A stretch of 64,000 bases of DNA from Patescibacteria group bacterium (lineage in GTDB: Bacteria > Patescibacteriota > Minisyncoccia > UBA6257 > JAAZHW01), in the NCBI GenBank assembly GCA_026415775.1, contig JAOAGL010000001.1, positions 270,233-334,232 on the forward strand, read 5' to 3'. A model generated the notes under the pieces. It had not been told where the DNA came from. It made no database searches and saw only the letters and a program-made list of their open reading frames with translations. Both the position numbers and the translations under genes were made by a program. Positions within the stretch are counted from its first letter, which is position 1. Every line of letters starts with the position of its first letter. Below, piece by piece: positions 5,257 through 44,922 of the stretch.

Positions 5257-5296
5257 TTACTTAACAATCTTGACGATCGTCAAGATTGTTAAGTAA
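5257..5296. promoter_or_regulatory. 40-bp perfect palindrome TTACTTAACAATCTTGACGATCGTCAAGATTGTTAAGTAA, a candidate operator or hairpin
   Basis: Exact reverse-complement symmetry read directly from the sequence. Lies 110 bp upstream of the 5406 ORF. A second near-identical copy is at 6018-6051. Confidence 0.5.
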
Positions 5297-5405
5297 AATA
5301 TAAATTATAAATTAATAGTACAAATAAGCGTTTTAATAAATTAGAGCAATTTAAAATTAGAAAATAAAACGAGCGAAATAAAAATGAAATACAAAACAAA
5401 AGACA

Positions 5406-5987
5406 ATGCCAAGAGAAACAATTACTTTTAAAATTTTTGAAATTTTATCAGACGGAGCTAAAACGATGGATAATTTAATGTTTATCTTTTTTAACGGTTA
5501 TCGCCGTTCTTATAAACAAGCTCTAAAACAACGATGGCAGAAATATATAGAGTCAAAAAAGAAAGAGGATTTAAAAAAGATAAAGAACAATTTTTACGTA
5601 TTATTAAATAGATTAGAAAAACAAGGTTTTATTATAAAAAAGAAAGATAAAACGCAGAAAAAGAATTTATGGTTGCTTACCCCTGCTGGTAGAAAAAAGG
5701 CAAAAATGTTAATTGCTCAAACCAATTTTTTATTTGATTATCCTCATGAAAATGATGGAAAATTAAGGATTATTATTTTTGATATTCCAGAAAAAGAACG
5801 GTTTAAGCGCAATTGGTTAAGAGCAATACTTACTTATTTAGATTTTAAAATGCTTCAAAAAAGCGTGTGGATTGGTACTAATAAGATTCCTGAACGTTTT
5901 ATTTATGATTTGAAAAAATTTAACGTTTTGCCTTATGTTCATATTTTTGAAGTGAGCCAGAGCGGTACAATTGAAACAAAAAAATAA
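5406..5987 (+). CDS. putative transcriptional regulator with an N-terminal winged-helix-like region and a C-terminal Cas2/PaaX_C-like domain
   Basis: C-terminal 'LRIIIFDIPEKERFKRNWLRAILTYLDFKMLQKSVWI' fits the Cas2/VapD-like pattern (hhhhFD..R..L...L..F..LQ.SVW). The N-terminal segment (..FYVLLNRLEKQGFIIKKK..LWLLTPAGRKKAK) looks like a wHTH wing. Assignment is from motif recall only. Confidence 0.35.
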   Translation: MPRETITFKIFEILSDGAKTMDNLMFIFFNGYRRSYKQALKQRWQKYIESKKKEDLKKIKNNFYVLLNRLEKQGFIIKKKDKTQKKNLWLLTPAGRKKAKMLIAQTNFLFDYPHENDGKLRIIIFDIPEKERFKRNWLRAILTYLDFKMLQKSVWIGTNKIPERFIYDLKKFNVLPYVHIFEVSQSGTIETKK

Positions 5988-6017
5988 ATAAAATATTAAA
6001 TTTACTTTTTGATTTTG

Positions 6018-6051
6018 CTTAACTTTCTTGACGATCGTCAGAAAAGTTAAG
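6018..6051. promoter_or_regulatory. second copy (imperfect) of the palindrome, CTTAACTTTCTTGACGATCGTCAGAAAAGTTAAG
   Basis: Shares the core CTTGACGATCGTCA and the CTTAAC/GTTAAG arms with the 5257-5296 palindrome. Lies between the 5406 ORF and the rpsP promoter. Confidence 0.45.
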
Positions 6052-6136
6052 TGAGGTGAGATAGGGGAGAAATTAATATAATAAAATATAATAAAGGAGG
6101 AGTAAAAAAGGTAAATAAAAAAACAATAAATAATGT

Positions 6137-7271: not shown

Positions 7272-7324
7272 TATTTTTGAATGGGATTAAAACGCTTATT
7301 TTAAGCAATTATTTTAAAAATTTT

Positions 7325-10300
7325 ATGTCATTTTTTGATAAAAAAATTAGTTCCAAAGCATTCACCTTAATTGAAATTTTAATCTACACAGCAATTTTTG
7401 GCGTTGTGGCTGCTGGTATTATCGGTGTTGCGTGGAACATCACGCGTCTTCACACAACCCAAATTGCTTCTAATGAAATTGATGAAAATTTGCGTTATGT
7501 AATGAATTTAGTAAATTCTAAAGTTCGTGAGGCTTCACTGATTGTACAGGCAAGTGGAACGACTTTAATTTTGCGGATGCCCGATTCACTAAAAAGTCCT
7601 ACAACATTTTCTTTAAACAATGGCACTTTATACATTCAAGAAGGAAGCGCTGATCCTGTAGCAATTACTTCCAATCGTGTTGAGGTTACTTCTTTGAATT
7701 TTGAATATATAAGCGTTGCTGGTAGTAAGGGTGGCGTGCGAGTTAATATTGCGATGGCATACAAAGAGCAGCCAGGTATTGCTTCGCGTGAATACATCAC
7801 AACAGTTACTAAGGTTAATGCCATCGTTTTTGATTCAGACATTATACCAGATGTAACTAATTCAAGAAGTGTTGGTATTAATACGGCGCAATGGAAGGAT
7901 GGTTATTTTTCTAGAAATGTAATAGTTGGCGGCGATGTTTCATCAACCGGTTTTATTATCGGTGGAGCTGGTCTTTGTATGGGAACTGATTGTCGTACTT
8001 CTTGGGGTCAGGTTACAGGCGTTACTGGTTCCGGCACACAAAATTATATTGCTAAATGGACCTCTTCTGGCTCTATTGGTAATTCGCAAATTTTTGATAA
8101 TGGGACTAATGTGGGTATTGGGACGACAAGTCCCAATGTAAAATTACATATTTCGAATACTACGGCAGGAATAAACGAACTATTGCGTTTAGCTTATAAC
8201 AATTCAGTGGGTTCAGGAGCGAGATTATCATGGTGGGCAGGAGATACCGTGTCAGAAACGGGGCGGATAGAAAACTTTGTAGATGCAGGAAATCAAGTGA
8301 GTTTAAGATTTTATACTTATAATTCTGGACTCGGTGAAAGAATGCGCATTACAGCTGCTGGTAATGTTGGTATCGGCACAGCATCTCCTCCTTCTCTTCT
8401 TTCCGTCGGCGCATCATCGCAATTTCAAGTTAATTCTTCTGGTGATATAGTTAAAATCAAAAACCTTACTTATTCCTGGCCATCCTCTCATGCTGTCGGA
8501 TTTCTTAAAAACGACGGCTCGGGTAATTTAACTTGGGATACTTCTGGCGCAGTTGGCGGCACAGGTTCAGCTGGCCAAGTGGCTTTTTGGTCCTCAACAA
8601 CAACGATAACAGGCGATAGCGGTTTTTATTGGGATAATACTAACAAAAGATTAGGTTTAGGCACAACTGCACCTGGTCAACGTTTATCTGTTGTTGGCGA
8701 TATTGGTTTATCTGGTGGCGATCGTTTTATTGGCACAACCGACGCCTATGGTTTAAGCATCAGAACAAACAATACCAATAGAATTTTCATTTCCGCTGAT
8801 GGTAATGTCGGTATTGGTACTACTTCGCCAAGCAGAACATTAGATGTTCATGGTATTGCGCAATTACGCGGCGCTGCCGGCGGCACTGGTTTATTTGTTG
8901 ATTCTGGTGGTAATGTGGGTATTGGGACGACAAGTCCAGCATTTAAACTTGATGTTAGTGGATCAGCTCGAGTTACCAATGTATTTAAAGAAGGCAATTG
9001 GCGTCACGTACTTTCTTCTTATGTTACTGCTACCCCTACTAATGGTGTTTTGTTAACTACCGCCATTCCTTATGATGGTGTTACAAATAGAGGAATGCAT
9101 GGTATTCGGGTGATGGGATATGCCTTTGGAGAGTCTAGACCTATAGATTTTGAAGTGGTATTTTATCTTTATACTTCTGGTTTTAATAGCTACGGCTGGA
9201 CAAATTATGGAGCTCATGACCCAGGAACAATTAAACTTTCTTATGAAGGTAATGTTGTTAAATTATGGTGGTCTTCTAAAGTTTATTATGCTAGTTATGA
9301 AATATTTACAAAAAGTCATGGAGCACTTGGCCAAAACGATTCATGGTTTGAGGGGTGGACCATCACTGATGCAGTAGCTCCTACTTCAAATGTTGTAGAT
9401 GTTCCATATCGAAATGCAATGCCTTATGGACTTGCAATGCGCGGCAATATTAATTTAAATGGAAATTGGCTTTCTGGAGACGGAGATAATGAGGGTGTTT
9501 ATATAAATGCTTCAGGTAATGTTGGTATTGGAGCAACAAGTCCATCATATCGATTAGATGTAGCTGGTGATATTAATACATCAGGTTATTTTAGAGGTAA
9601 TGGTTCCCAAATAACTAATTTAAATGCTTCTAATTTAACAAGTGGTATTGTGCCTGCAGCACGACTTTCATCTACGCAAGCTTATTATACTTTAGATCCG
9701 ATTTTTCCAAAAACAAATCAGCAACATACAACTTTAGGAGGAGCGACAATTGGTGAAATTGCTTTGTCGTCTGCTTATGTTCAAAATAAATTGCAATTTG
9801 TTTTACCTTATAGTATTGAATATACAACCAATGGAACAACCTGGAATACTTATCCTGATCCAGTTGATAGTGATACAGTTAAAAAAATGTTTTTGGGTTA
9901 TAACGCCGGGGGTAAAATTTATCTCCGTGGTCCCAATAATGGAAATTGGCTTGGTTTGCGCATAACATGGCAGGCACCTTCGTATTATTTCTTGAATTAT
10001 TTCTATACTTACATGAGTACTTCAGGACATCAATGTGCAATTACAATAGAAAAGACATATGGAGATGATTTGAATACATGGATTACTGTTGCTACAACGA
10101 CTAATTTTTCTAGTTGGCCTGGGCATACTCTTGTTCCTCATTCGAATATTGCGTGGAATCCGACACCTACTCCAGGTACTCATTCTAAATATGTACGAGT
10201 GACTTTTACTCCCACATGGAATGGATCTTATCCTAATAATAATATTGATATTTATGCAATAGATTGGTTTGGAGAATATCCAGCTAATATCAAACCCATG

Positions 10301-13300
10301 CAATTATTTACTTGGGATTTTGATAAAAATGTTACATTTGATAATGGATTAAGAATGCCTGGTAGTATTGGTATTGGGACAACAAATCCTATTCAAAAAT
10401 TACACGTCGAAGGAAATGCTTATATTTCAGGAAGTGTCGGCATTGGCACGACAAATCCAAATACTTTACTCGATGTAAGGGGAAGAATTAACACGCCAGA
10501 AATAGCTTTTCGTAATAGTGACGGAGGTGATGATAGTGACCCTTATCGTTTAAGAAAATATCAATTTGGTTCAAGCTCTAATGAACTTCAGCTTCAGTTA
10601 AATGATGATAGTGATGAAAGATTTGCTATTTATGGTAATTCTTGTAGTGGTTATAGTTGTGGTGAATATAGTGGTAATCTTTATCATTTCTTTAAAGCAG
10701 ATGGAACGGCTTATCATGCTGGCAACGTCGGTATCGGCACAACAAGTCCCTCATATAAATTAGACGTCTCAGGAGATATTCGTGCTACAGGAACTATTTA
10801 TGGAACATTCTCTGGTACAATCAATGCTGCTAATGTTTCAGCCGGTTCATTTGGTGCTAACACTGGTGGTGGCAATTATTCCTTCCCAGCGAATCTGACT
10901 GTTAGTGGAGCTGTTGGTATTGGGACGACGAATCCGGGGGTGAAATTAGATGTAGTAGGGGGATATATTAGAACTTGGGGTGGAGAGTTTATATCATATA
11001 AAGAGAATCCTGGAGGAATTTTGGGGGCTTTAGCTTTGGAAGGAAAAAATGCTTCCTCAACCAATCCTTATATGAAAAGATGGACTTTGTTTAATATGCA
11101 AGATTATTCTGGTGTGAATGGTTTTGTCATCTATGAATATTATGATGCAAATAATGATGGTAGTTATTGTAATGATGGCGGAGCATGTAATATGAGATTT
11201 ATTATTGCAAGTGGGGGTAATGTTGGTATCGGAACTGCCACTCCTGCTTATCCATTAGATGTAGTAGGTGATGTTAGATTCTCAGGCACTCTTCAAGGTG
11301 GTTCAGTGCCATGGGCTCGTTTAACTTCTTTCCCATCAGCTTGTTCTGCTGGCAATGCAGTAACTGGATTAGGCTCAACTCTTACTTGTTCGCCATTTAT
11401 GACTAATCCAATGACTACATTGGGTGATATCATCTACGGCGGTTCCAGTGGCACACCAACCCGTTTAGCTGGCTCAGCTGGTTTTCTTAAATCAACTGGC
11501 GCTGCTGCGCCTTCTTGGAGCGCTGTTAATCTTGCTTCCTCTGATGTAACAGGCACTTTAGCAGTAACTAGTGGCGGTACAGGTTTATCTTCTATTGCGG
11601 CTGGCTCTATTCTTTATGCTACTTCTTCTAATACTTTAATTGCCATTGCTCCAACTGCCGCTAATCAGGTTTTAAGGTCAACCGCTGCTAATGCCTTGCA
11701 ATTTGGCGCATTAGTTGCTGCTGATATTCCTAATTTAGACGCTAGTAAAATTACTTCAGGAACTTTTGGTATTGCTCGTGGCGGTACTAACTCAACTGCT
11801 ACTCCCACTGCTGGCGCTGTAGCTTATGGTACTGGTTCAGCTTATGCTTTTACTGCTGCTGGTACAGCTAACCAAGTTTTAATTTCAGGCGGCACCAGCA
11901 CTCCCACCTGGTCTAACATCGCTTCATTACTCACTCAAGGCACTAACATCACTATTTCTGGCACCACCAATGCCACTATTGCCACGGTTAACAACCCAAC
12001 TTTCTCTACTTCTGTTTCAACACCATTATTAACCAGCTCAGGCGCTATTGCTATTAAACCCGGTTCTAATTCAACCACCGCTATTCAATTACAAAATACC
12101 GGTGGTACAGCCATTGTTAATGTTGATACAACGAATAGTAGAGTAGGTATTAATAATGCAAGTCCCAGCTATGCTTTAGATATTACAGGCGATATCCGCG
12201 TTACTGGTGCCATCATTGGTACAGTTTCAACAACAATTTCGGCAACCAATGTTTCAGCCGGCGCTTTTGGTTCTAACACTGGTGGCGGCAATTATTCTTT
12301 CCCAGCCAGAGTAGGAATAGGCACAACGTCACCAAGTACAGATTTGCATATAAAAGTTTCAAGCGGTGATGTGAAAATACAACTGGGTACTCAAGCAAGT
12401 GTTGTGCCAACTACTGGAGGACCAAATAATCCTTCGGCAGCGGTCGATGATTCAAGCAATGGAGGTTCGGCTGTTTGGAGTAATCCAACCAATGTTTATA
12501 CCTCTAATGACGTTTATGCGTCAGTTACAATACCAGCAGGTGTGGATCCAGATTATTATTGGAGCGATTATTTGAAAGCGACGGGTTTTGGATTTTCTCT
12601 TCCTAGCACCGCTAATATTCTTGGGATTAAGGTAGAAATAGAGGCAAAGGCGAGCGTTGCTTCGACATTAACAATAAATGAAGTATTATTAGTTAAATCA
12701 GGTTCAATTGTTGGTAGCAGCAAAAGCGGAGGACTTCTAACTGCATCAGATGCGTACTACTCATTTGGTGATACAACTGATTTGTGGGGAACAACTTGGT
12801 CTTACTCAGATATTAACAATTCCAATTTTGGCGTGGTTGTGAGTGTATTTAATCCTACAACATCAGCAAGAACGGCTTATATAGACCACATTAGAATAAC
12901 CGTTTATTATACCAGCAGTGGAGATGCAGATTGGCAGATGGCAGTATCTTCAACAAGCGGCGCTTTCATTATAAATCCTTTATTTAGTGGTGGAAGAGTG
13001 GGCATTGGAACTACAACGCCATCGGCAACTTTAGATATAAATGGGACTCTTAATGTAAATGGAATTATTCAAGGAAAGTTTTATGATAAATATACTGGCA
13101 GCATTTCCCGCACTTATTCTAGTGGAAATGGAACTTCAAGCTTGAGCACGGGCAAATATTATCCTGATTGGTTCTGTGCCCTATCTAAAGTTGATGCTAC
13201 AGAGTTAGATACTGCTACCGAACATGCTTATTGCACGGTTACTCTCGACGGTAATAATCAGTGGCTTTTAAATGCTGTAATTAGCGGCGTCTCGGATCAA

Positions 13301-13336
13301 ACGGTTTCTTGTAGTATTTATTGCATACGATTATAA
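7325..13336 (+). CDS. giant (~2000 aa) prepilin-leader surface protein with tail-fibre-like 'GNVGIGTTSPxxKLDVxG' repeats
   Basis: Best start is the ATG at 7325 (MSFFDKKISSKA|FTLIEILIYTAIFGVVAAG), a class III/prepilin-type leader. The ORF track's 7277 start is a TTG. The remainder is G/S/T/N-rich with at least 11 repeat copies, two ~50-aa paralogous segments and a Cys-containing C-terminal domain. Confidence 0.6.
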   Translation: MSFFDKKISSKAFTLIEILIYTAIFGVVAAGIIGVAWNITRLHTTQIASNEIDENLRYVMNLVNSKVREASLIVQASGTTLILRMPDSLKSPTTFSLNNGTLYIQEGSADPVAITSNRVEVTSLNFEYISVAGSKGGVRVNIAMAYKEQPGIASREYITTVTKVNAIVFDSDIIPDVTNSRSVGINTAQWKDGYFSRNVIVGGDVSSTGFIIGGAGLCMGTDCRTSWGQVTGVTGSGTQNYIAKWTSSGSIGNSQIFDNGTNVGIGTTSPNVKLHISNTTAGINELLRLAYNNSVGSGARLSWWAGDTVSETGRIENFVDAGNQVSLRFYTYNSGLGERMRITAAGNVGIGTASPPSLLSVGASSQFQVNSSGDIVKIKNLTYSWPSSHAVGFLKNDGSGNLTWDTSGAVGGTGSAGQVAFWSSTTTITGDSGFYWDNTNKRLGLGTTAPGQRLSVVGDIGLSGGDRFIGTTDAYGLSIRTNNTNRIFISADGNVGIGTTSPSRTLDVHGIAQLRGAAGGTGLFVDSGGNVGIGTTSPAFKLDVSGSARVTNVFKEGNWRHVLSSYVTATPTNGVLLTTAIPYDGVTNRGMHGIRVMGYAFGESRPIDFEVVFYLYTSGFNSYGWTNYGAHDPGTIKLSYEGNVVKLWWSSKVYYASYEIFTKSHGALGQNDSWFEGWTITDAVAPTSNVVDVPYRNAMPYGLAMRGNINLNGNWLSGDGDNEGVYINASGNVGIGATSPSYRLDVAGDINTSGYFRGNGSQITNLNASNLTSGIVPAARLSSTQAYYTLDPIFPKTNQQHTTLGGATIGEIALSSAYVQNKLQFVLPYSIEYTTNGTTWNTYPDPVDSDTVKKMFLGYNAGGKIYLRGPNNGNWLGLRITWQAPSYYFLNYFYTYMSTSGHQCAITIEKTYGDDLNTWITVATTTNFSSWPGHTLVPHSNIAWNPTPTPGTHSKYVRVTFTPTWNGSYPNNNIDIYAIDWFGEYPANIKPMQLFTWDFDKNVTFDNGLRMPGSIGIGTTNPIQKLHVEGNAYISGSVGIGTTNPNTLLDVRGRINTPEIAFRNSDGGDDSDPYRLRKYQFGSSSNELQLQLNDDSDERFAIYGNSCSGYSCGEYSGNLYHFFKADGTAYHAGNVGIGTTSPSYKLDVSGDIRATGTIYGTFSGTINAANVSAGSFGANTGGGNYSFPANLTVSGAVGIGTTNPGVKLDVVGGYIRTWGGEFISYKENPGGILGALALEGKNASSTNPYMKRWTLFNMQDYSGVNGFVIYEYYDANNDGSYCNDGGACNMRFIIASGGNVGIGTATPAYPLDVVGDVRFSGTLQGGSVPWARLTSFPSACSAGNAVTGLGSTLTCSPFMTNPMTTLGDIIYGGSSGTPTRLAGSAGFLKSTGAAAPSWSAVNLASSDVTGTLAVTSGGTGLSSIAAGSILYATSSNTLIAIAPTAANQVLRSTAANALQFGALVAADIPNLDASKITSGTFGIARGGTNSTATPTAGAVAYGTGSAYAFTAAGTANQVLISGGTSTPTWSNIASLLTQGTNITISGTTNATIATVNNPTFSTSVSTPLLTSSGAIAIKPGSNSTTAIQLQNTGGTAIVNVDTTNSRVGINNASPSYALDITGDIRVTGAIIGTVSTTISATNVSAGAFGSNTGGGNYSFPARVGIGTTSPSTDLHIKVSSGDVKIQLGTQASVVPTTGGPNNPSAAVDDSSNGGSAVWSNPTNVYTSNDVYASVTIPAGVDPDYYWSDYLKATGFGFSLPSTANILGIKVEIEAKASVASTLTINEVLLVKSGSIVGSSKSGGLLTASDAYYSFGDTTDLWGTTWSYSDINNSNFGVVVSVFNPTTSARTAYIDHIRITVYYTSSGDADWQMAVSSTSGAFIINPLFSGGRVGIGTTTPSATLDINGTLNVNGIIQGKFYDKYTGSISRTYSSGNGTSSLSTGKYYPDWFCALSKVDATELDTATEHAYCTVTLDGNNQWLLNAVISGVSDQTVSCSIYCIRL

Positions 13337-15142: not shown

Positions 15143-16594
15143 ATGCAAAAGAAAATTAAGCGTTTAATGTTTGTTATCGCGATTCTGCTTTTTTTGTTTA
15201 TGGCGGTAATGTTTATTGTTTATTCTTGGGGATATCGCTGGAATCAAAAAGAGTGGAAATTTGTTAAAACAGGAGGACTATACTTGCGAGTTTATAATAG
15301 CAAACCAGAAATTTATTTGAATAATCAATATCTTAAAAAAGCTACGCCGGGACTTTTAAGCAACGGCATTTTTTTATCTAATTTAATTCCTGATAATTAC
15401 TTATTAAAAATTAGCAAACCAAATTATTTTTCTTGGGAGAAAGAAGTTGTAATTGAACCACAAATGGTGACGACCTTTTCTTCTATTGTTTTATTACCAA
15501 AAAATCCTTTATCAAAAAGTATCTATTCTTCTAATGAAACATCTTCTGTTGAAATTTTAGATATTTTACCCTTGAAAAATGGTAAAGAACTAATTATTCA
15601 AGCGATTGAAGAAGGAACTTCAACTAGCGCCGTGCTTTTTATTTATAATTTTAATAATCAAAACCAATTGGAAATTTATAGAAAGAAAATTAATAAAGGA
15701 GAAAATTTCAATTTAATTTCTAATTTAATAATAGCTGATAATGACGCTAATCAAATTATTTTTCCGGTTGTTGTTAACAAAACAACTAATTTTTATTTGT
15801 GGGAGAGAATAAATCCGGAAAATATAAAGAATATCTCGCAAACAATTATTTCACAATTCAAATTTAAAAACCCTATTAAAAAAATTGATTTTTATCCCAA
15901 TACCGAAAATAAATATATTATTTTAACCGGCACGGATTTAATGCTTGTTGATTTGAACAAAAACGAAATGAAAAAAATATTTTTAGACGTAAAAGATTTT
16001 GCGAGAAAGGATTACAATATGTTGGTTATAAATAATCAAGGCGCGGCATTTAGTTATAATTTGATTTTAGATACTAGCTCGCCATTGGGGATTTTAGAAC
16101 TAGAAAAAGAAAATAGCATCAAGAAAATTCAAATATCGCCAAAGAATAATTATTATAGCGTACAATTAAATAACGGAGATTTATATCTTTTAAAAAGCGG
16201 CGAAGAAATAACGCTTCTTAAATCAATATCTTTATTTGCTTTTTCAAATGATGACAAAAAATTGGCTTATATAAATAAAGATAACGAATTACATGTCAAA
16301 TATTTAACGGATTTCACTGGTGATTTTTTACAAAAAAAGGGAGAAGATGTTTTAATAAAAAAATTAACTGAGCCCATAAATAATTTAATCTGTCATTCTG
16401 ATTTAAATCATTTAATTTATCAAAGCGAGAATAAAATTTATTTTGCGGAAATTGATGTGCGCGATGCGGTGAATATTTTTGAATTAAATTTTAACGGAAA
16501 TAATTTTTATTTAGAAGGAGGGAAAAATGGAACTATTTTTACTTGGAATGAAAAGACAATCAAAAGAATAGATTTGCTTTATGAACAGCTATAA
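15143..16594 (+). CDS. membrane-anchored PEGA-domain protein with a large beta-rich C-terminal region
   Basis: N-terminal TM (LMFVIAILLFLFMAVMFIVY). 'GGLYLRVYNSKPEIYLNNQYLKKATPGLLSNGIFLSNLIPDNYLLKISKPNYFSWEKEVVIEP' fits the PEGA pattern (L.V.S.P..A.IYL.G...G.TP..L..L..G.Y.L.ISK.GY). Confidence 0.45.
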   Translation: MQKKIKRLMFVIAILLFLFMAVMFIVYSWGYRWNQKEWKFVKTGGLYLRVYNSKPEIYLNNQYLKKATPGLLSNGIFLSNLIPDNYLLKISKPNYFSWEKEVVIEPQMVTTFSSIVLLPKNPLSKSIYSSNETSSVEILDILPLKNGKELIIQAIEEGTSTSAVLFIYNFNNQNQLEIYRKKINKGENFNLISNLIIADNDANQIIFPVVVNKTTNFYLWERINPENIKNISQTIISQFKFKNPIKKIDFYPNTENKYIILTGTDLMLVDLNKNEMKKIFLDVKDFARKDYNMLVINNQGAAFSYNLILDTSSPLGILELEKENSIKKIQISPKNNYYSVQLNNGDLYLLKSGEEITLLKSISLFAFSNDDKKLAYINKDNELHVKYLTDFTGDFLQKKGEDVLIKKLTEPINNLICHSDLNHLIYQSENKIYFAEIDVRDAVNIFELNFNGNNFYLEGGKNGTIFTWNEKTIKRIDLLYEQL

Positions 16595-16640: not shown

Positions 16641-18320
16641 ATGCAACAAAATGATAAAAATGCACAATTAGCTGAGATGATTAAAAAGGCGCAACTGGCT
16701 GCTGAAGAAAGAGAGGCAGAGCGATTAGCTAATTCTTTGGGTTTGAAATATGGAGATTTAACAAAAATATCTGCTCAAACAGACGCGCTGGAATTGATTA
16801 ATGAAGAAGAAGCCAAGGTCGCTCTTTGCGCTCCTTTTTTGCTGAAACAAAAAACTATTTTATTAGCTTGTAAAAACCCTGCTTTGGAGGCAACTAAAAA
16901 TGTAATAGAAGGTTTGAGAAGTAAAGGTTATGATTTGGATATTTATGTTGTTTCTTTAAGGTCGTTAGAGAATCTTTGGCAAGGTTATCGCTTTATTGTG
17001 GGTAGAAAAAAAGAAATTACTGGCGGTATAGAAGTAGACAAAGACCATTTGGCAAGCATAATGAATGAAGTTAAAACGACCTCATCTTTAAAAGAAAAAA
17101 TACAAAATTTTGATAGTCCTTATATTTCTCAAATTTTTGAAATTATTATTGCTGGAGCAATAGCGATGGATGCTTCGGATATTCATATTGAACCAGAAGA
17201 AAGCGGCATTCGTTTGAGATATCGTTTGGATGGCGTTTTGCAAGATATTTCAGCATTAAATCAGCATCATTATCGCTCGATTATTTCAAGAATTAAATTA
17301 TTGGGCGGTATGAAAATCAATGTTCATACAGCGCCGCAAGATGGAAGGTTCACAATTAAAACTTATGATGTTGATATCGAGGTGCGTGTTTCTATTATTC
17401 CGAGCGCTTATGGTGAAACGGTTGTAATGCGTTTGCTTAATCCCAAAAACATTCAATTGGATTTAAAAAATTTAGGTTTTCGTGAAGATGATTTGGCCAT
17501 TATGGAGGAGCAAATTGGGCGCCCCAATGGTATTATTTTGAATACTGGTCCAACAGGGTCAGGTAAAACAACGACCTTATACGCTTTTTTAAGACGTATT
17601 TATAATCCAGAAATTAAGATTATTACTGTTGAAGACCCCATTGAATACCACTTGGAAGGAATAACCCAGACGCAAGTAAATCCAACGCGTAACTATACCT
17701 TTGCTTCTGGTTTGCGGTCAATTTTGCGTCAAGACCCCGATGTAATTTTAGTGGGTGAGATTCGCGATAATGAAACAGCAGAGATTGCTATGCATGCTGC
17801 TTTAACGGGCCATCTCGTTTTTTCTACTTTGCATACTAATGATGCTTGTGGTACAATTCCTCGGTTATTGGATATGAATATCCAGCCAGCAATTCTGGCG
17901 CCAGCATTAAATCTGGCTATTGCTCAGCGTTTGGTTAGAAAATTATGCCAACACTGTAAAGAAGCTGTGGAATTAACGCCAGAACAAGCTGACAAAATTA
18001 GAAAGATGGTTGAAAAAATGCCCGAAAGAGTTAAGAAGCCACAATTGGGGGATAAGATTGTTATTTATAAATCTAAAGGTTGCGAGCATTGCAATGGAAC
18101 AGGTTATAAAGGAAGAGTGGCGGTAGCAGAATTGCTGGTGGTTGATAGAGATATTCAAAATTTAATTACGCGCTCAGAGAAAATGCCGACGGCGGCGGAA
18201 ATTAAAGATATGGCTATTCAAAAAGGAATGACAACAATGGAGGATGATGCGATTTTAAAAATTTTGGATGGTATTACAAGTTTATCTGAGGCGGAAAATG
18301 TTTTGGGTAAACTTCTATAG
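16641..18320 (+). CDS. PilB/GspE-family type IV filament assembly ATPase (paralog 1)
   Basis: Walker A 'GPTGSGKTTT', Asp/His boxes, and a tetracysteine motif CQHCKE...CEHCNGTGYKGR. 559 aa. Confidence 0.85.
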   Translation: MQQNDKNAQLAEMIKKAQLAAEEREAERLANSLGLKYGDLTKISAQTDALELINEEEAKVALCAPFLLKQKTILLACKNPALEATKNVIEGLRSKGYDLDIYVVSLRSLENLWQGYRFIVGRKKEITGGIEVDKDHLASIMNEVKTTSSLKEKIQNFDSPYISQIFEIIIAGAIAMDASDIHIEPEESGIRLRYRLDGVLQDISALNQHHYRSIISRIKLLGGMKINVHTAPQDGRFTIKTYDVDIEVRVSIIPSAYGETVVMRLLNPKNIQLDLKNLGFREDDLAIMEEQIGRPNGIILNTGPTGSGKTTTLYAFLRRIYNPEIKIITVEDPIEYHLEGITQTQVNPTRNYTFASGLRSILRQDPDVILVGEIRDNETAEIAMHAALTGHLVFSTLHTNDACGTIPRLLDMNIQPAILAPALNLAIAQRLVRKLCQHCKEAVELTPEQADKIRKMVEKMPERVKKPQLGDKIVIYKSKGCEHCNGTGYKGRVAVAELLVVDRDIQNLITRSEKMPTAAEIKDMAIQKGMTTMEDDAILKILDGITSLSEAENVLGKLL

Positions 18321-18332
18321 TTTTTGAAAATT

Positions 18333-18360
18333 AAATCCGCCTCAATAATGAGGCGGATTT
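18333..18360 (+). terminator. hairpin terminator (AAATCCGCCTCA / loop ATAA / TGAGGCGGATTT)
   Basis: Perfect 12-bp stem directly after the PilB stop. A weak T-rich tail follows. Confidence 0.55.
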
Positions 18361-18386
18361 AATTTAGATAAAATTATAAAAAAATA

Positions 18387-18569
18387 GCCTTTTTAACCCG
18401 GAGGCAATTTAATCTCGCAAAACAGGGCTGCGAGCTCAAGAATTTTTTAAGGCAATCCGCACAGGGCGGACGAATAACCCAGTCGGAACCAGGTTACCCT
18501 TAAAAAAATTCCCTATAGGCTATAAATTGGGTTAAAGTATAACGCCAATTGCCCCCAGGTTAAAAAGGC
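18387..18569 (+). ncRNA. candidate structured ncRNA of unknown class (strand uncertain)
   Basis: GC-rich (~50%) island in a ~30% GC intergenic region. The 5' arm GCCTTTTTAACCCGGAGGCAATT (18387-18409) pairs with the 3' arm AATTGCCCCCAGGTTAAAAAGGC (18547-18569) at 21 of 23 positions. Internal hairpins CTCGCA-AAACAGGGC-TGCGAG and TCCGC-ACAGG-GCGGA. Confidence 0.3.
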
Positions 18570-18760
18570 CATTTATCGAGGTATTTTAAAGAGCAATCTA
18601 ATTATAGCAAAAAACATTTATTTTGTCAATAATTGACTAAAACCAGATAAGATAGTAAAGTATTTTAAATTGAAACGGTAAAAACTATTTTATCAAAAAT
18701 AGAATACCAAGTCAAGGGAGTTGTGGATAACTTTTATAATCAAAAAATATCAATAGCAAA

Positions 18761-18788
18761 TTGAAAAATACAGATGTTTTGTTATAAT
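18761..18788 (+). promoter_or_regulatory. promoter TTGAAA-N16-(TG)TTATAAT upstream of ruvB
   Basis: Hexamers read from the sequence. 15 nt upstream of the ruvB start codon. Confidence 0.4.
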
Positions 18789-18802
18789 TTTAATAATGAG
18801 CT

Positions 18803-19816
18803 ATGTCAAAAAATATTTTTAAAGCTGATCCGATTTTGGACAATGCTCTACGTCCTAAAAAATGGAATGATTTTGTTGGCCAAGAAAAGGCAAAAGAAAA
18901 TTTACGAATAATGATTGAAGCGGCGCGAAAAAGAGCCGAAGCAATAGATCATTTGCTTTTTTATGGTTGCGCTGGTTTAGGGAAAACAACGCTTGCATAT
19001 TTAATCGCTCAGGAATTAGAAGCTAATTTGAAAATCACTTCAGGGCCAGCAATTGAAAAAGCAGCAGACCTCGCTTCGCTCTTAGCTAATTTAGACGAAG
19101 GAGATGTTTTGTTTATTGATGAAATACATCGTTTGAATAAAATGATTGAAGAAGTTTTATATTCTGCGATGGAATCAAGGGTTTTAAATTTAGTTTTAGG
19201 AAAAAAATCTTCAACGCGCGCAGTTCAAATTGATTTGCCGCCGTTTACTTTAATTGGAGCAACTACACGTATAGGATTATTATCTAGTCCTTTGCGTTCA
19301 CGTTTTGGAGCAATTTTTAAATTGGATTTTTATGAAGTTGAAGATATAAAGAAAATTTTGTCTAACAATGCGCGATTGCTAAATATTGGAATTACTGACA
19401 AAGCCAAAGAAATTTTAGCAAAAGCTAGCAGAGCTACGCCGCGAGTGGCAAATCGTTTATTAAAGCGTAGCCGAGATTTTGCTACGGTGGAAGGAAAAAA
19501 CGTCATTGATGAAGAAATTGCTCAAAAAACTTTGAAATTATTTGATATTGATGAATGGGGATTAGAATCAACTGACCGCCGTATTTTAGAAGTAATTATT
19601 GACCGTTTTAATGGCGGGCCAGTTGGTATAAAAGCTTTAGCGGCGGCCACAAACGAGGAAGAAGATACTATTGAGGAAATTTATGAGCCTTATTTAATGC
19701 GACTTGGATTATTAGAAAGAACCACACGCGGTCGTATTGTAAGCGAAGCGGGTTATAAACATTTAAATCTTTATCATTTAGCTCAAAAATCAGAGCAAAA
19801 GAAATTAATTGAATAA
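18803..19816 (+). CDS. ruvB: Holliday junction branch migration helicase RuvB
   Basis: 'LRPKKWNDFVGQEKAKENL', Walker A 'GCAGLGKTTLA', sensor and arginine-finger regions typical of RuvB. 337 aa. Confidence 0.9.
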   Translation: MSKNIFKADPILDNALRPKKWNDFVGQEKAKENLRIMIEAARKRAEAIDHLLFYGCAGLGKTTLAYLIAQELEANLKITSGPAIEKAADLASLLANLDEGDVLFIDEIHRLNKMIEEVLYSAMESRVLNLVLGKKSSTRAVQIDLPPFTLIGATTRIGLLSSPLRSRFGAIFKLDFYEVEDIKKILSNNARLLNIGITDKAKEILAKASRATPRVANRLLKRSRDFATVEGKNVIDEEIAQKTLKLFDIDEWGLESTDRRILEVIIDRFNGGPVGIKALAAATNEEEDTIEEIYEPYLMRLGLLERTTRGRIVSEAGYKHLNLYHLAQKSEQKKLIE

Positions 19817-42051: not shown

Positions 42052-43812
42052 ATGATTCCAAATAAAAACTTTCTTGATTTATTGGTTAAAAATAACAAGA
42101 TAAACCAATCATTGGCTGATCGTTTATTAAAAGAAAGCCAAAATTTAAATCGCAATGTTGAAGATTTAATTTATGAACGCAATCTTATTTCTGATGAGGA
42201 AATAGCCAAAATTAAAAGCGAGTACTATAAAATTCCTTTAAAGACATTTACAAAAGAAGAAATAGTACCTAATGAAGTTTTGAATATTATCCCCGAGGAG
42301 GTTTCTCGAACCCACAAGATTGTTGCTTTTAAAAAAGAAAAGGATACTTTGTATGTCGGTATGCTTTATCCTGATGATACTAAGGCACAGGATATCTTGA
42401 AATTTATTGCTAAACAGAAAAAATTGAATATCGCCATTTATCTTGTTGCAAAGAGCGATTTAGAAAATTTGTGGAAAAATTATCGGTCATTTGCTACTCG
42501 CTTAAAAGAAATTCAAGATAGTGTAGAAATATTTAAACGCCAAGCAAAAGCAACCCACCAATTATATCAACAAAGAATTATTAGAATTGATGAAGCTAGT
42601 GGGGTGATTGCTGAAGAGGCGCCTGTGATTAAAATTGTTTCAACTGTTTTGGAAGAAGCGGTTAATGCCGATGCTTCTGATATACATATCGAACCGATGC
42701 GAAACAGATTAAGAGTGCGTTTCAGATTGGATGGCGACTTAAAAGAAATTATGAGCTTGCCCTTGGAATTGCAACCCGCCATTGTCGCTCGCATTAAAAT
42801 TTTGTCTGATTTAAAAATTGACGAAACACGCGTGCCTCAAGATGGACGATTCCGAACATTGCTAGACAATAAAGAAATTGATTTTCGTGTTTCAACTTTG
42901 CCAACTGCGTTGGGTGAAAAAGTGGCCATTCGTATTTTAAATCCTTATATCGGATTAAAAACAATTGAAGGGCTGGGTGTAAAAGACTACCATCAAAAGC
43001 TGATTCTAGAGGGAATTGAAAAGCCTTTTGGTATGATTCTTGTTACTGGTCCAACGGGTTCTGGTAAGACAACAACGTTATACGCTGTTCTCCAAAAATT
43101 AAATCAAGAAGACATCAATATTGTTAGTTTAGAAGATCCGGTAGAGTACTTTATTGAAGGATTAAATCAGTCTCAAGTTAAACCAGAAATTGGTTATAAT
43201 TTTGCTTCGGGGTTAAGACAGATTGTGCGTCAAGACCCTGATGTAATAATGGTTGGTGAGATTCGCGATAATGAAACGGCTGAATTAGCTGTGCACGCTG
43301 CCCTTACTGGTCATCTAGTGCTTTCGACGTTGCATACTAATAATGCTATTGGAGTTATTCCGCGATTAATTGATATGAAAATTGAGCCTTATTTGTTGCC
43401 AGCATCGCTTATTTTAATGGTTGCTCAGCGATTGGTTGGGAAGTTGTGTGATAATTGTAAACAAAAAGTTGAAGCCACAGGAATTTTAAAAGAAGAAATT
43501 GAAAAAACAATTGATTCACTGCCTTCGGAATTGAAAAAGAAATACAAAAAAGAAAAATACGAAATTTACTTACCACAGGGTTGTAAAGAATGTAATTTTA
43601 AGGGAGTGAAAGGCCGTATTCCCATTTTTGAAATTTTAAAAATGACACCGTCTTTAGAGCAGGTGATTTTAACTAATCCATCAGAAGCTAATCTCAAAGC
43701 CGAGGCGGAAAGGCAGGGAATGGTTACTTTGCGACAAGATGGCATTATCAAAGCTTTAGAAGGCATTGTTTCGGTTGATGAGGTTCTTAAAGAAACAGTG
43801 AAATTGGAATAA
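42052..43812 (+). CDS. pilB: type IV pilus assembly ATPase PilB (paralog 2, in the canonical operon)
   Basis: Walker A 'GPTGSGKTTT' and tetracysteine motif CDNCKQK...CKECNFKGVKGR. 586 aa. Confidence 0.85.
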   Translation: MIPNKNFLDLLVKNNKINQSLADRLLKESQNLNRNVEDLIYERNLISDEEIAKIKSEYYKIPLKTFTKEEIVPNEVLNIIPEEVSRTHKIVAFKKEKDTLYVGMLYPDDTKAQDILKFIAKQKKLNIAIYLVAKSDLENLWKNYRSFATRLKEIQDSVEIFKRQAKATHQLYQQRIIRIDEASGVIAEEAPVIKIVSTVLEEAVNADASDIHIEPMRNRLRVRFRLDGDLKEIMSLPLELQPAIVARIKILSDLKIDETRVPQDGRFRTLLDNKEIDFRVSTLPTALGEKVAIRILNPYIGLKTIEGLGVKDYHQKLILEGIEKPFGMILVTGPTGSGKTTTLYAVLQKLNQEDINIVSLEDPVEYFIEGLNQSQVKPEIGYNFASGLRQIVRQDPDVIMVGEIRDNETAELAVHAALTGHLVLSTLHTNNAIGVIPRLIDMKIEPYLLPASLILMVAQRLVGKLCDNCKQKVEATGILKEEIEKTIDSLPSELKKKYKKEKYEIYLPQGCKECNFKGVKGRIPIFEILKMTPSLEQVILTNPSEANLKAEAERQGMVTLRQDGIIKALEGIVSVDEVLKETVKLE

Positions 43813-43848: not shown

Positions 43849-44922
43849 ATGGATTTATTTTATAAAGACAAATTAGAACAACTTTTAATGCTTACAGCGC
43901 AAGAAAGCGCTTCTGATTTGCATTTTTCGGTTGGCCGCAAACCAACTTTAAGAATTGATGGACGATTAGTTCCTATTGTTAAAGAGGAAGTTTACACAAA
44001 GGATATTGTGGCTGGTTTAGTTGATGCTCTTCTTCCAGCAGAAAAAAAAGAAGAATTTCTTAAAAATAGAGAAGTTGATTTTTCTTATACTTTATCCGAT
44101 AAAGCGCGTTTTCGTGTTAATGTTTATTTTCAAAGAGGCAATATGGCCGCCTCATTAAGATTTATTCCTTATAAAATTAGAACCATTGAAGAATTAAATT
44201 TGCCGCCAGTATTGCATGATTTTACTAAATATACTCAGGGATTTGTATTGGTGGTTGGTCCAGCAGGGCATGGCAAATCAACAACTCTTGCTGCCTTAAT
44301 TGATGAAATTAATCATAAAAGAACCACGCATATTATTACAATTGAAGATCCAATAGAATATGTTTTTATTCAGGATAGATCAATTATTGACCAAAGAGAA
44401 GTTTTTAGCGACACTCTGAGTTTTCATCGCGCTTTGCGTTCAGTTTTGCGACAAGATCCGGATGTAATTATGGTCGGTGAAATGCGCGACCCAGAAACAA
44501 TTCAAACTGCTATTACAGCCGCTGAAACTGGGCATTTGGTTTTTTCAACTCTTCATACTAATTCTGCTTCCCAGACAATTGATCGTATTATTGATAGTTT
44601 TCCAGCTTCACAACAAGCCCAAATCAGAACCCAGCTAGCTTCAACGTTAGTAGGTATTGTTTCTCAAAGATTAGTGCCGCGGTTAAATGGTGGTCGCGTG
44701 CCTGCTTGCGAGGTTATGATAACAAATTCTGCCATTCGCAATTTAATTAGAGATGATAAAGTTTATCAAATTGATTTAGTTATTGAAACTAGCATCCAAG
44801 AAAAAATGATTTCTTTAAATCGTTCGTTGGCAAATCTTGTAAAACAAAGCGAAATTTCTTTAGAAACAGCCCAATCGTATTCATTAAATCCGGCCGAATT
44901 AGCAAATCTTTTGGCTCGATAA
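43849..44922 (+). CDS. pilT: twitching motility/retraction ATPase PilT
   Basis: Shorter (357 aa) PilT/PilU-type ATPase with Walker A 'GPAGHGKSTT' and 'VGEMRDPETIQTAITAAETGHLVFSTLHTN'. Confidence 0.75.
   Translation: MDLFYKDKLEQLLMLTAQESASDLHFSVGRKPTLRIDGRLVPIVKEEVYTKDIVAGLVDALLPAEKKEEFLKNREVDFSYTLSDKARFRVNVYFQRGNMAASLRFIPYKIRTIEELNLPPVLHDFTKYTQGFVLVVGPAGHGKSTTLAALIDEINHKRTTHIITIEDPIEYVFIQDRSIIDQREVFSDTLSFHRALRSVLRQDPDVIMVGEMRDPETIQTAITAAETGHLVFSTLHTNSASQTIDRIIDSFPASQQAQIRTQLASTLVGIVSQRLVPRLNGGRVPACEVMITNSAIRNLIRDDKVYQIDLVIETSIQEKMISLNRSLANLVKQSEISLETAQSYSLNPAELANLLAR

Follow-up and report, generated by a model that had tools for sequence, protein, structure and literature searches.

Domain IV of SRP RNA carries a GNRA tetraloop together with symmetric and asymmetric loops. 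6S RNA is a rod of ~200 nt in which a relatively unstructured central bubble separates two imperfect arms, and the open 5′ strand of this bubble is the template for product RNAs (PMC8876501). A search of the open-access literature found no 6S or structured RNA relevant to CPR, Parcubacteria or Patescibacteria. CPR bacteria, Parcubacteria among them, make up a large share of bacterial diversity, with tiny genomes and few members in culture. To our knowledge, almost nothing is known of CPR non-coding RNAs apart from rRNA, tRNA and the stable RNAs that are universal.

Here we analyse a GC-rich element that lies between a T2SSE/PilB-type ATPase gene (pilB) and ruvB in a 64 kb stretch of DNA (the window). 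We put at roughly 0.6 the probability that positions 18382–18574 on the minus strand are the core of a gene for a stable structured non-coding RNA that acts in trans by binding protein. Sequence comparison identifies the element as a genuine gene for a folded non-coding RNA, one of an apparently undescribed family that many Parcubacteria keep at one spot. It would be new as a family within a known kind, the orphan structured bacterial non-coding RNAs.

A GC-rich element with paired ends between pilB and ruvB

The gap between pilB and ruvB spans 482 bp (18321–18802). Its GC content is 0.51 at 18400–18499 versus 0.19–0.30 in the flanks, in line with the original prediction of an AT-rich gap of ~480 bp with a jump to ~50% GC. 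That prediction also paired 18387–18409 with 18547–18569 at 21 of 23 positions, and both arms lie exactly there: GCCTTTTTAACCCGGAGGCAATT (18387–18409, plus strand) and GCCTTTTTAACCTGGGGGCAATT (18547–18569, minus strand) both fit one degenerate 23-mer and are inverted copies that differ at 2 positions. The degenerate 23-mer has no further match at up to 3 mismatches in the 64 kb window, and none of 100 shuffles gave 2 matches. As had been proposed, no ORF of note crosses the element, the sole ORF over it being one of 21 aa with a TTG start. The features of the locus, in window coordinates, are the following.

16641–18320, plus strand: T2SSE/PilB-type ATPase gene (pilB)
18329–18364, no strand assigned: two-way terminator hairpin AAAUCCGCCUC-AUUAUU-GAGGCGGAUUU, separating the RNA gene from the pilB stop codon
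18373–18386, minus strand: U-rich tract UAUUUUUUUAUAAU, directly 3′ of P1, as read from the sequence
18382–18409, minus strand: 3′ strand of P1, AAUUGCCUCCGGGUUAAAAAGGCUAUUU, from folds and covariation
18414–18434, minus strand: P4 hairpin, CUCGCA-GCCCUGUUU-UGCGAG, with covariation at all 6 modelled pairs
18438–18513, minus strand: long arm P3, with basal helix GGGAAUUUUUUUAAGG/CCUUAAAAAAUUCUU around a conserved tip and a clade-specific branch
18456–18470, minus strand: extra hairpin P3d, UCCGCCCUGUGCGGA, in the window's own clade only
18472–18499, minus strand: P3 tip, GGGUAACCUGG-U[UCCG]A-CUGGGUUAUUC, the most conserved segment
18518–18546, minus strand: P2 hairpin region, with GGC...GCC closure
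18547–18574, minus strand: 5′ strand of P1, AAAUGGCCUUUUUAACCUGGGGGCAAUU, from folds and covariation
18601–18629, minus strand: sigma-70-type promoter, TTGACA (18629–18624), 17-nt spacer, TGcTATAAT (18609–18601)
18803–19816, plus strand: ruvB

The RNA strand and its transcription signals

The element had originally been read on the plus strand. As a structured element it stands, but by sequence criteria the RNA is encoded on the minus strand, against the direction of pilB and ruvB, because fold energies, an excess of G·U pairs and a minus-strand promoter, which had been missed, all point that way. The two mismatches in the plus-strand closing helix are C·A oppositions that become G·U pairs on the minus strand, where the helix is unbroken and reaches ~28 bp (18382–18409 with 18547–18574). 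The minus-strand core folds at −78.4 kcal/mol (z = −7.0, with none of 200 shuffles as good), and the plus strand at −58.4 kcal/mol (z = −3.4). Across the homologues described below, 2240 paired cells contain 375 G·U against 37 A·C, and the 94.8% of cells that are paired on the minus strand would fall to 79.7% were the plus strand the RNA.

The promoter of the RNA gene matches the consensus at 12 of 12 positions and has a TG extension, which places the predicted RNA start near 18597–18594. The minus-strand transcript predicted from promoter to terminator folds with z = −10.4, again with none of 200 shuffles as good. At the other end, UAUUUUUUUAU lies directly 3′ of the closing helix and is followed by the hairpin at ~18329–18364. 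The U-rich tract and P1 together resemble an intrinsic terminator, which is the likely 3′ end of the RNA, and the hairpin has the sequence of one that can terminate both convergent transcripts, those of pilB and of the RNA gene.

Two further promoter-like sites lie on the ruvB side of the element. One is on the RNA strand (18687–18715, minus strand; TTGACT-17-TAAAAT, 10/12, with TG), ~90 nt upstream of the main promoter, and the other is a TG-extended 11/12 promoter that faces ruvB (18761–18788, plus strand). Given these sites, the 230-bp spacer may hold three promoters.

Architecture of the RNA

The fold is built from four elements, joined by short and poorly conserved linkers. P1 is the closing helix, P2 a hairpin that not every member has, P3 a long arm whose conserved tip ends in a UNCG tetraloop, and P4 a short hairpin. 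The RNA is ~190 nt long in the window and 112–190 nt in relatives. Both local hairpins of the original prediction belong to this fold: CTCGCA...TGCGAG is P4, and TCCGC...GCGGA is the clade-specific branch of P3. P3 has internal loops, including one above its basal helix, and a bulge; P1 is a near-perfect helix of 20–28 bp.

Sequence constraint is concentrated in two places. The inner part of P1 follows AAYCUGnRGGCAAU/AUUGCCYnCAGRUU, and the P3 tip follows GGRUAnnCUGGYUYCGRCUGGnnUAYUCC, with a tandem U·G/G·U pair, the UNCG tetraloop and a bulged pyrimidine. The pair that closes the tip loop covaries, being U-A in 25 sequences and C-G in 20. By contrast, the sequences of outer P1, P2, basal P3 and P4 drift and their pairing is kept.

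Two parts of the fold come and go. In most homologues the position of P2 is occupied by a hairpin of unrelated sequence (UUGGGUU/GGCCCAA, AAGGACUC/GGGUCUUU and GAAGACG/CGUUUUC in different lineages), and P2 was left out of the family model. Within the P2 of the window, an alternative inner pairing, UUGG...CCAA, is possible. The smallest variants (112–129 nt) lack P2 and form a compact three-way junction. The extra hairpin P3d is present in the window and in L004, L075, L091, L130 and L232, and is absent from homologues of 160–170 nt.

Homologues across Parcubacteria

The closest named RuvB relatives are MAGs labelled "Minisyncoccia", "Parcubacteria group" and "Paceibacterota". The first contigs were fetched through RuvB at 93, 85, 74, 73, 72 and 68% identity. 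Five of these six share the gene order GGDEF, unknown protein, T2SSE, gap, ruvB, and each of the five gaps in the same-order contigs holds a homologue opposite the genes, with the promoter kept. The most conserved internal segment (CTGGYTYCGRCTGGNNTAYTC) was used to scan metagenomes, which gave at least 120 loci, and a covariance model (R1) built from 14 sequences found a full-length homologue in 51 of the 120 metagenome matches listed. Weaker members were confirmed by a second covariance model (R2). The window element scores 154 bits with R1 and 130 bits with R2 over the full model length; these minus-strand scores of 130–154 bits compare with 35–43 bits on the plus strand. In all, at least 58 related loci carry the RNA.

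Most homologues were found through the P3-tip pattern and only about ten lineages without it, so the invariance of the tip is overstated. A scan of a genome collection with the 5′ motif RACYTGGGRGCRATTGGC was too degenerate, the matches listed coming mostly from unrelated phyla; the RNA was present in one of the six loci searched with the model, L232 (Ca. Paceibacterota). Four more distant loci were fetched through RuvB only: L255 (RuvB named Azambacteria), L256 (RuvB named Sungbacteria), L257 and L258. In each of them a gap of 200–370 nt separates a T2SSE gene from ruvB, and each gap contains the RNA on the opposite strand, with scores of 63–110 bits. Their tip motif is recognisable and varied; the variations include a covarying exchange at a pair that is invariant elsewhere and a loop insertion of 26 nt.

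The transcription signals are shared by much of the family. A promoter that matches at 11 or more of 12 positions lies upstream of 39 of the 47 scorable homologues, with a 17-nt spacer in 38 and the TG extension in 32. It ends 1–54 nt ahead of P1 across the family and ~5 nt ahead in the small variants, whose RNA would therefore start essentially at P1. At least five U residues fall within the 8 nt right after P1 in 27 of the 47 homologues with downstream sequence, and several homologues that have no such run carry a separate hairpin after P1.

The RNA occurs once in the 64 kb window. None of the three viral contigs with a motif match carries it, and a phage origin was rejected on this basis. 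A 29-nt hairpin that matches the P3 tip only (27 bits; L055 956–984, L069 4695–4723 and L261 3714–3742, the last two on contigs of equal length, 38,173 bp) occurs on a contig classed as viral, and could be a chance or a borrowed hairpin.

Compensatory base changes support the fold

RNAalifold identified 18 pairs with compensatory changes among 14 sequences. With 45 distinct sequences, both sides have changed in 43 of the 52 modelled pairs, including 24 of 25 in P1, 9 of 10 in basal P3 and all 6 in P4. None of 500 shuffles matched the observed value on any of five measures, and sliding the structure by 1–3 columns left only 37–55% of cells paired versus 94.8% in place. The exchange is plain in outer P1, where GCCUUUUUAACC/GGUUAAAAAGGC in the window is replaced by GACUUCCCUGACC/GGUUUGGGCAGUC in L007. 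Compensatory changes in homologues were the check that the original prediction had named for its candidate structured RNA, and they bear the candidate out.

A protein-coding reading was rejected because substitutions track base pairs rather than codons and there is no conserved ORF. A 19-codon ATG frame at the 5′ end of P1 was likewise discarded, as its ATG is missing in L004 and L007.

A fixed position beside a T2SSE ATPase gene

Wherever the contig reaches far enough, the RNA gene closely follows the gene for a T2SSE (PilB-like) ATPase and is encoded on the other strand. The arrangement of T2SSE gene, oppositely oriented RNA gene and ruvB is found in at least 41 loci, down to 53–60% RuvB identity, with the RNA usually 3–120 nt from the ATPase stop codon and 33–250 nt from the ruvB start. 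Where the locus is compact, the RNA promoter and the start of ruvB lie within ~30–60 nt of each other. The genes beyond this trio vary among lineages, indicating that the trio is the conserved unit.

Two exceptions suggest that the RNA is tied most closely to the ATPase gene, at its 3′ end. The L090 clade has no adjacent ruvB and still has the RNA beside the ATPase gene, and in L006 (RuvB 85% identical), where another gene lies upstream of ruvB instead of pilB, the RNA is absent. In a MAFFT alignment the intergenic region of L006 resembled a diverged homologue, but it was rejected as a member: a repeat lies on both sides of ruvB instead, and the family model scores 26.1 and 25.7 bits on the two strands of the region versus 63–110 bits for true members. 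The repeat copies (~150–200 nt; L006 3696–3905 and 5160–5307) flank ruvB, have long inverted ends CCTGCCTACCGGTAAGCAGG/CCTGCCTGCCGGTAGGCAGG and share inner blocks. From its sequence this repeat looks like a MITE, and in L006 the order of pilB, RNA and ruvB is broken.

The fixed position of the RNA probably reflects overlapping signals. In a compacted genome, the RNA gene would share a two-way terminator with pilB and divergent promoters with ruvB, which would hold the three genes together.

Other features of the window touch on the neighbouring genes. A second PilB-like gene (42274–43785), ~24 kb away, encodes a protein 42% identical to the RNA-linked one, and a further T2SSE-family match is present at 44239–44595, making the RNA-linked ATPase one of at least two or three paralogues. 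It may not be the pilus assembly ATPase itself. Two relatives give a weak match to the MshEN domain. Between the GGDEF gene and the ATPase gene lies an ORF for a 483-aa protein (15143–16594, plus strand) that has no Pfam domain and is conserved in closer relatives at 33–74% identity; with its GGDEF and ATPase neighbours it may make up a module linked to c-di-GMP.

Further upstream, a 2019-aa ORF (7277–13336, plus strand) has an N-terminal prepilin-type methylation motif (PF07963, just above the cutoff) and at least 11 copies of a 49-nt repeat that encodes ~GNVGIGTTSP...KLDV. By these sequence features, its product may be a giant type IV pilin-like surface protein. Two 59-nt inverted copies (5259–5317 and 5994–6052), each with the palindrome AACAATCTTGACGATCGTCAAGATTGTT, flank an ORF for a 193-aa PaaX/PadR-like regulator (5406–5987), and in sequence they look like paired operator sites for that regulator.

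Known RNA classes and alternative explanations

Searches against Rfam 15 found no family match to the element when the whole window was scanned at the gathering score, none in three divergent members (the window element, L034 and L258) at E ≤ 10, and noise only in 13 further homologous loci at E ≤ 5. The weak Rfam matches in the pilB–ruvB gap are confined to the terminator hairpin at 18329–18364. The element is thus left without a named class, as in the original prediction, which had pointed to an Rfam search as the way to find one.

Individual classes were also considered and rejected. For tmRNA, ARAGORN finds only three tRNAs in the window, and the sole Rfam tmRNA match has 7 bits and lies outside the element. 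CUGGUUCCGACUGG resembles what we take to be the tmRNA 5′ motif CUGGAUUCGACGGG; no other feature fits, and ARAGORN is negative. SRP RNA does not fit because the apical loop is UCCG or UUCG, not GNRA, and because SRP models give no match, even a local one, at E ≤ 10. Inspection by eye showed that the defining motifs of 5S rRNA and RNase P RNA are lacking, as are those of a K-turn or a loop E in the internal loop of P3. A riboswitch or other cis leader was set aside because what comes next along the RNA strand is the convergent ATPase gene, met at its 3′ end; P1, at 20–28 bp, is no marginally stable switching helix, and no riboswitch model matched.

Were the element a 6S (or Ms1-like) RNA of Parcubacteria, it would be an open-promoter mimic that binds RNA polymerase; P1 and P3 would be its arms and the junction its bubble. 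The size fits, as does the fact that the RNA has its own gene under a consensus housekeeping promoter. Together, P1 and P3 make a rod with an irregular centre in which the closing stem lies opposite the apical stem. Free B. subtilis 6S-1 RNA has a hairpin like P4 3′ of the bubble centre (PMC8876501), and the lack of an Rfam match does not settle the matter, given how little sequence 6S RNAs have in common. However, the 6S models, RF00013 and 6S-Flavo among them, failed to match at E ≤ 10 in the three divergent members and at E ≤ 5 in the 13 loci, and R2 in turn fails to find E. coli ssrS. Where the open 5′ strand of the bubble should lie there is a hairpin that covaries and has short linkers, or a stretch of only 1–4 nt in the 112–129-nt variants. 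P1 is near-perfect rather than an interrupted arm, and conservation peaks at the apical hairpin rather than around the bubble. We therefore regard a 6S identity or a polymerase-binding role as quite unlikely, and the proposal of a 6S-like rod with internal bubbles, made in the original prediction, is not supported, given the missing model match, the 5′ side and the uninterrupted P1. The element might instead act in cis, as a convergent transcription unit and two-way terminator or insulator that controls the T2SSE ATPase gene or separates pilB from ruvB, through antisense or transcriptional interference by the transcript or by read-through. Such a role would suit an RNA that lies on the opposite strand close to the ATPase stop codon, that stays with pilB where ruvB has gone (L090) and is missing where ruvB has no upstream pilB (L006), whose P1 and U-run form a predicted terminator, and whose promoter in compact loci sits near the ruvB start. 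It would not call for ~110 nt of covarying internal structure or a conserved P3 tip. In the window, moreover, each neighbour has a signal of its own, a terminator hairpin for pilB and an 11/12 promoter for ruvB, which leaves the RNA gene insulated on both sides, and P1 is far too stable for a regulated switch. On balance a cis role is unlikely.

We think it very unlikely that the gene encodes a different self-contained RNA, a ribozyme or a sensor of a ligand or metal. The multi-helix junction, the invariant tandem G·U pairs, which are often metal sites, and the conserved internal loop of P3 are of the kind expected for one, but no ribozyme or riboswitch family matched in Rfam 15, the junction linkers are short and poorly conserved, and there is no downstream gene on the same strand. 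A plus-strand mRNA element, in the pilB 3′ UTR or the ruvB 5′ leader, is highly improbable. The element does lie between two plus-strand genes, and its plus-strand fold beats shuffles (z = −3.4). This reading is nevertheless largely refuted by the 375 G·U against 37 A·C, by the drop in pairing from 94.8% to 79.7% on the plus strand, by conserved promoters that face the opposite way and by model scores of 35–43 bits on the plus strand. Least credible of all, to the point of being close to negligible, is a MITE with the 23-bp ends as its terminal inverted repeats. The element has the right form, ~183 bp with inverted ends, and a MITE-like repeat flanks ruvB in L006, but there is one copy in 64 kb, and the site is the same at 53–60% RuvB identity. 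The internal helices covary, the G·U bias is strand-specific, the element has its own promoter and its outer ends vary with compensation, and the L006 repeat is a different sequence with a weak match to the family model. A mobile element was ruled out on synteny and on copy number in the window.

A possible protein-binding RNA

We favour a stable structured RNA that works in trans by binding protein, giving even odds to that mode of action. Protein binding is suggested by the pattern of constraint: in inner P1 and in the tip of P3 the sequence itself is kept, and the rest drifts. Invariant tandem wobble pairs and a bulge are typical recognition features. The putative sites of direct recognition would be inner P1 and the tip of P3, the latter with its tandem G·U pairs and bulged pyrimidine, and outer P1, P2 and P4 would need only to be paired. 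If P1 and P3 stack end to end, the two putative sites would lie on either side of the junction in one long rod. P1 would seal both ends of the RNA against exonucleases and double as the terminator stem. A perfect helix of 20–28 bp would be a substrate for RNase III, so the RNA may mature into a form other than the modelled one. An abundant protein-binding RNA of this type would be the scaffold of an RNA–protein particle or a protein sponge.

Near-consensus promoters are typical of highly expressed stable RNAs. The promoters of this family are so close to consensus that we infer high expression and an abundant RNA. Against the protein-binding reading, the neighbouring genes, for a secretion-type ATPase and RuvB, suggest no RNA-binding partner, and the close tie between the RNA and the ATPase gene could be a sign of a role in cis. 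The RNA is unlikely to be dispensable, given its consensus-strength promoter, its covarying fold of 110–190 nt and its fixed position at 53–60% RuvB identity.

A broader reading, which we offer tentatively and with some doubt, is that this is an unrecognised housekeeping RNA of Parcubacteria, present once per genome across the class, as the RNA subunit of a lineage-specific RNA–protein particle (RNP) or as a functional replacement for a regulator such as 6S RNA. If so, it would join the very few stable RNAs that are broadly conserved in bacteria, and a polymerase regulator or the core of a new RNP would show how basic processes are controlled in reduced cells. In either case the RNA provides a concrete, alignable target with a covariance model.

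Comparison with known RNAs

The RNA shares several features with 6S RNA (ssrS; Rfam RF00013), and particularly with B. subtilis 6S-1: a stand-alone gene with a strong housekeeping promoter, ends paired in a long closing stem, a second long arm opposite and a hairpin on the 3′ side. It differs in having no open template strand, an uninterrupted closing helix and an apical hairpin that is its most conserved part.

With SRP RNA (4.5S, ffs) it has in common a small, housekeeping-type character and the plan of a long hairpin in which a distal protein-binding site is conserved and the rest varies. The smallest variants here (112–129 nt) are also near SRP RNA in size. However, the tip is capped by a UNCG loop, there are no recognised domain IV features, and P4 and P2 are extra.

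Y RNAs and YrlA, the partners of Ro60 and Rsr, likewise have paired ends in a long stem with a conserved segment and a variable multi-hairpin module above it, and a protein-scaffold role is proposed for them as for the RNA here. They differ in that the present family has no Rfam match, and its conserved stem sequence is presumably unrelated to the Ro-binding motif.

Unlike raiA, ROOL and OLE, the RNA has another fold and sequence, a single fixed locus and, as far as tested, a distribution restricted to Parcubacteria, and it is much smaller than ROOL or OLE. What it shares with these three is the form in which it appears in genomes, as a GC-rich, covarying and well-structured island in an AT-rich intergenic region that is found across a whole lineage.
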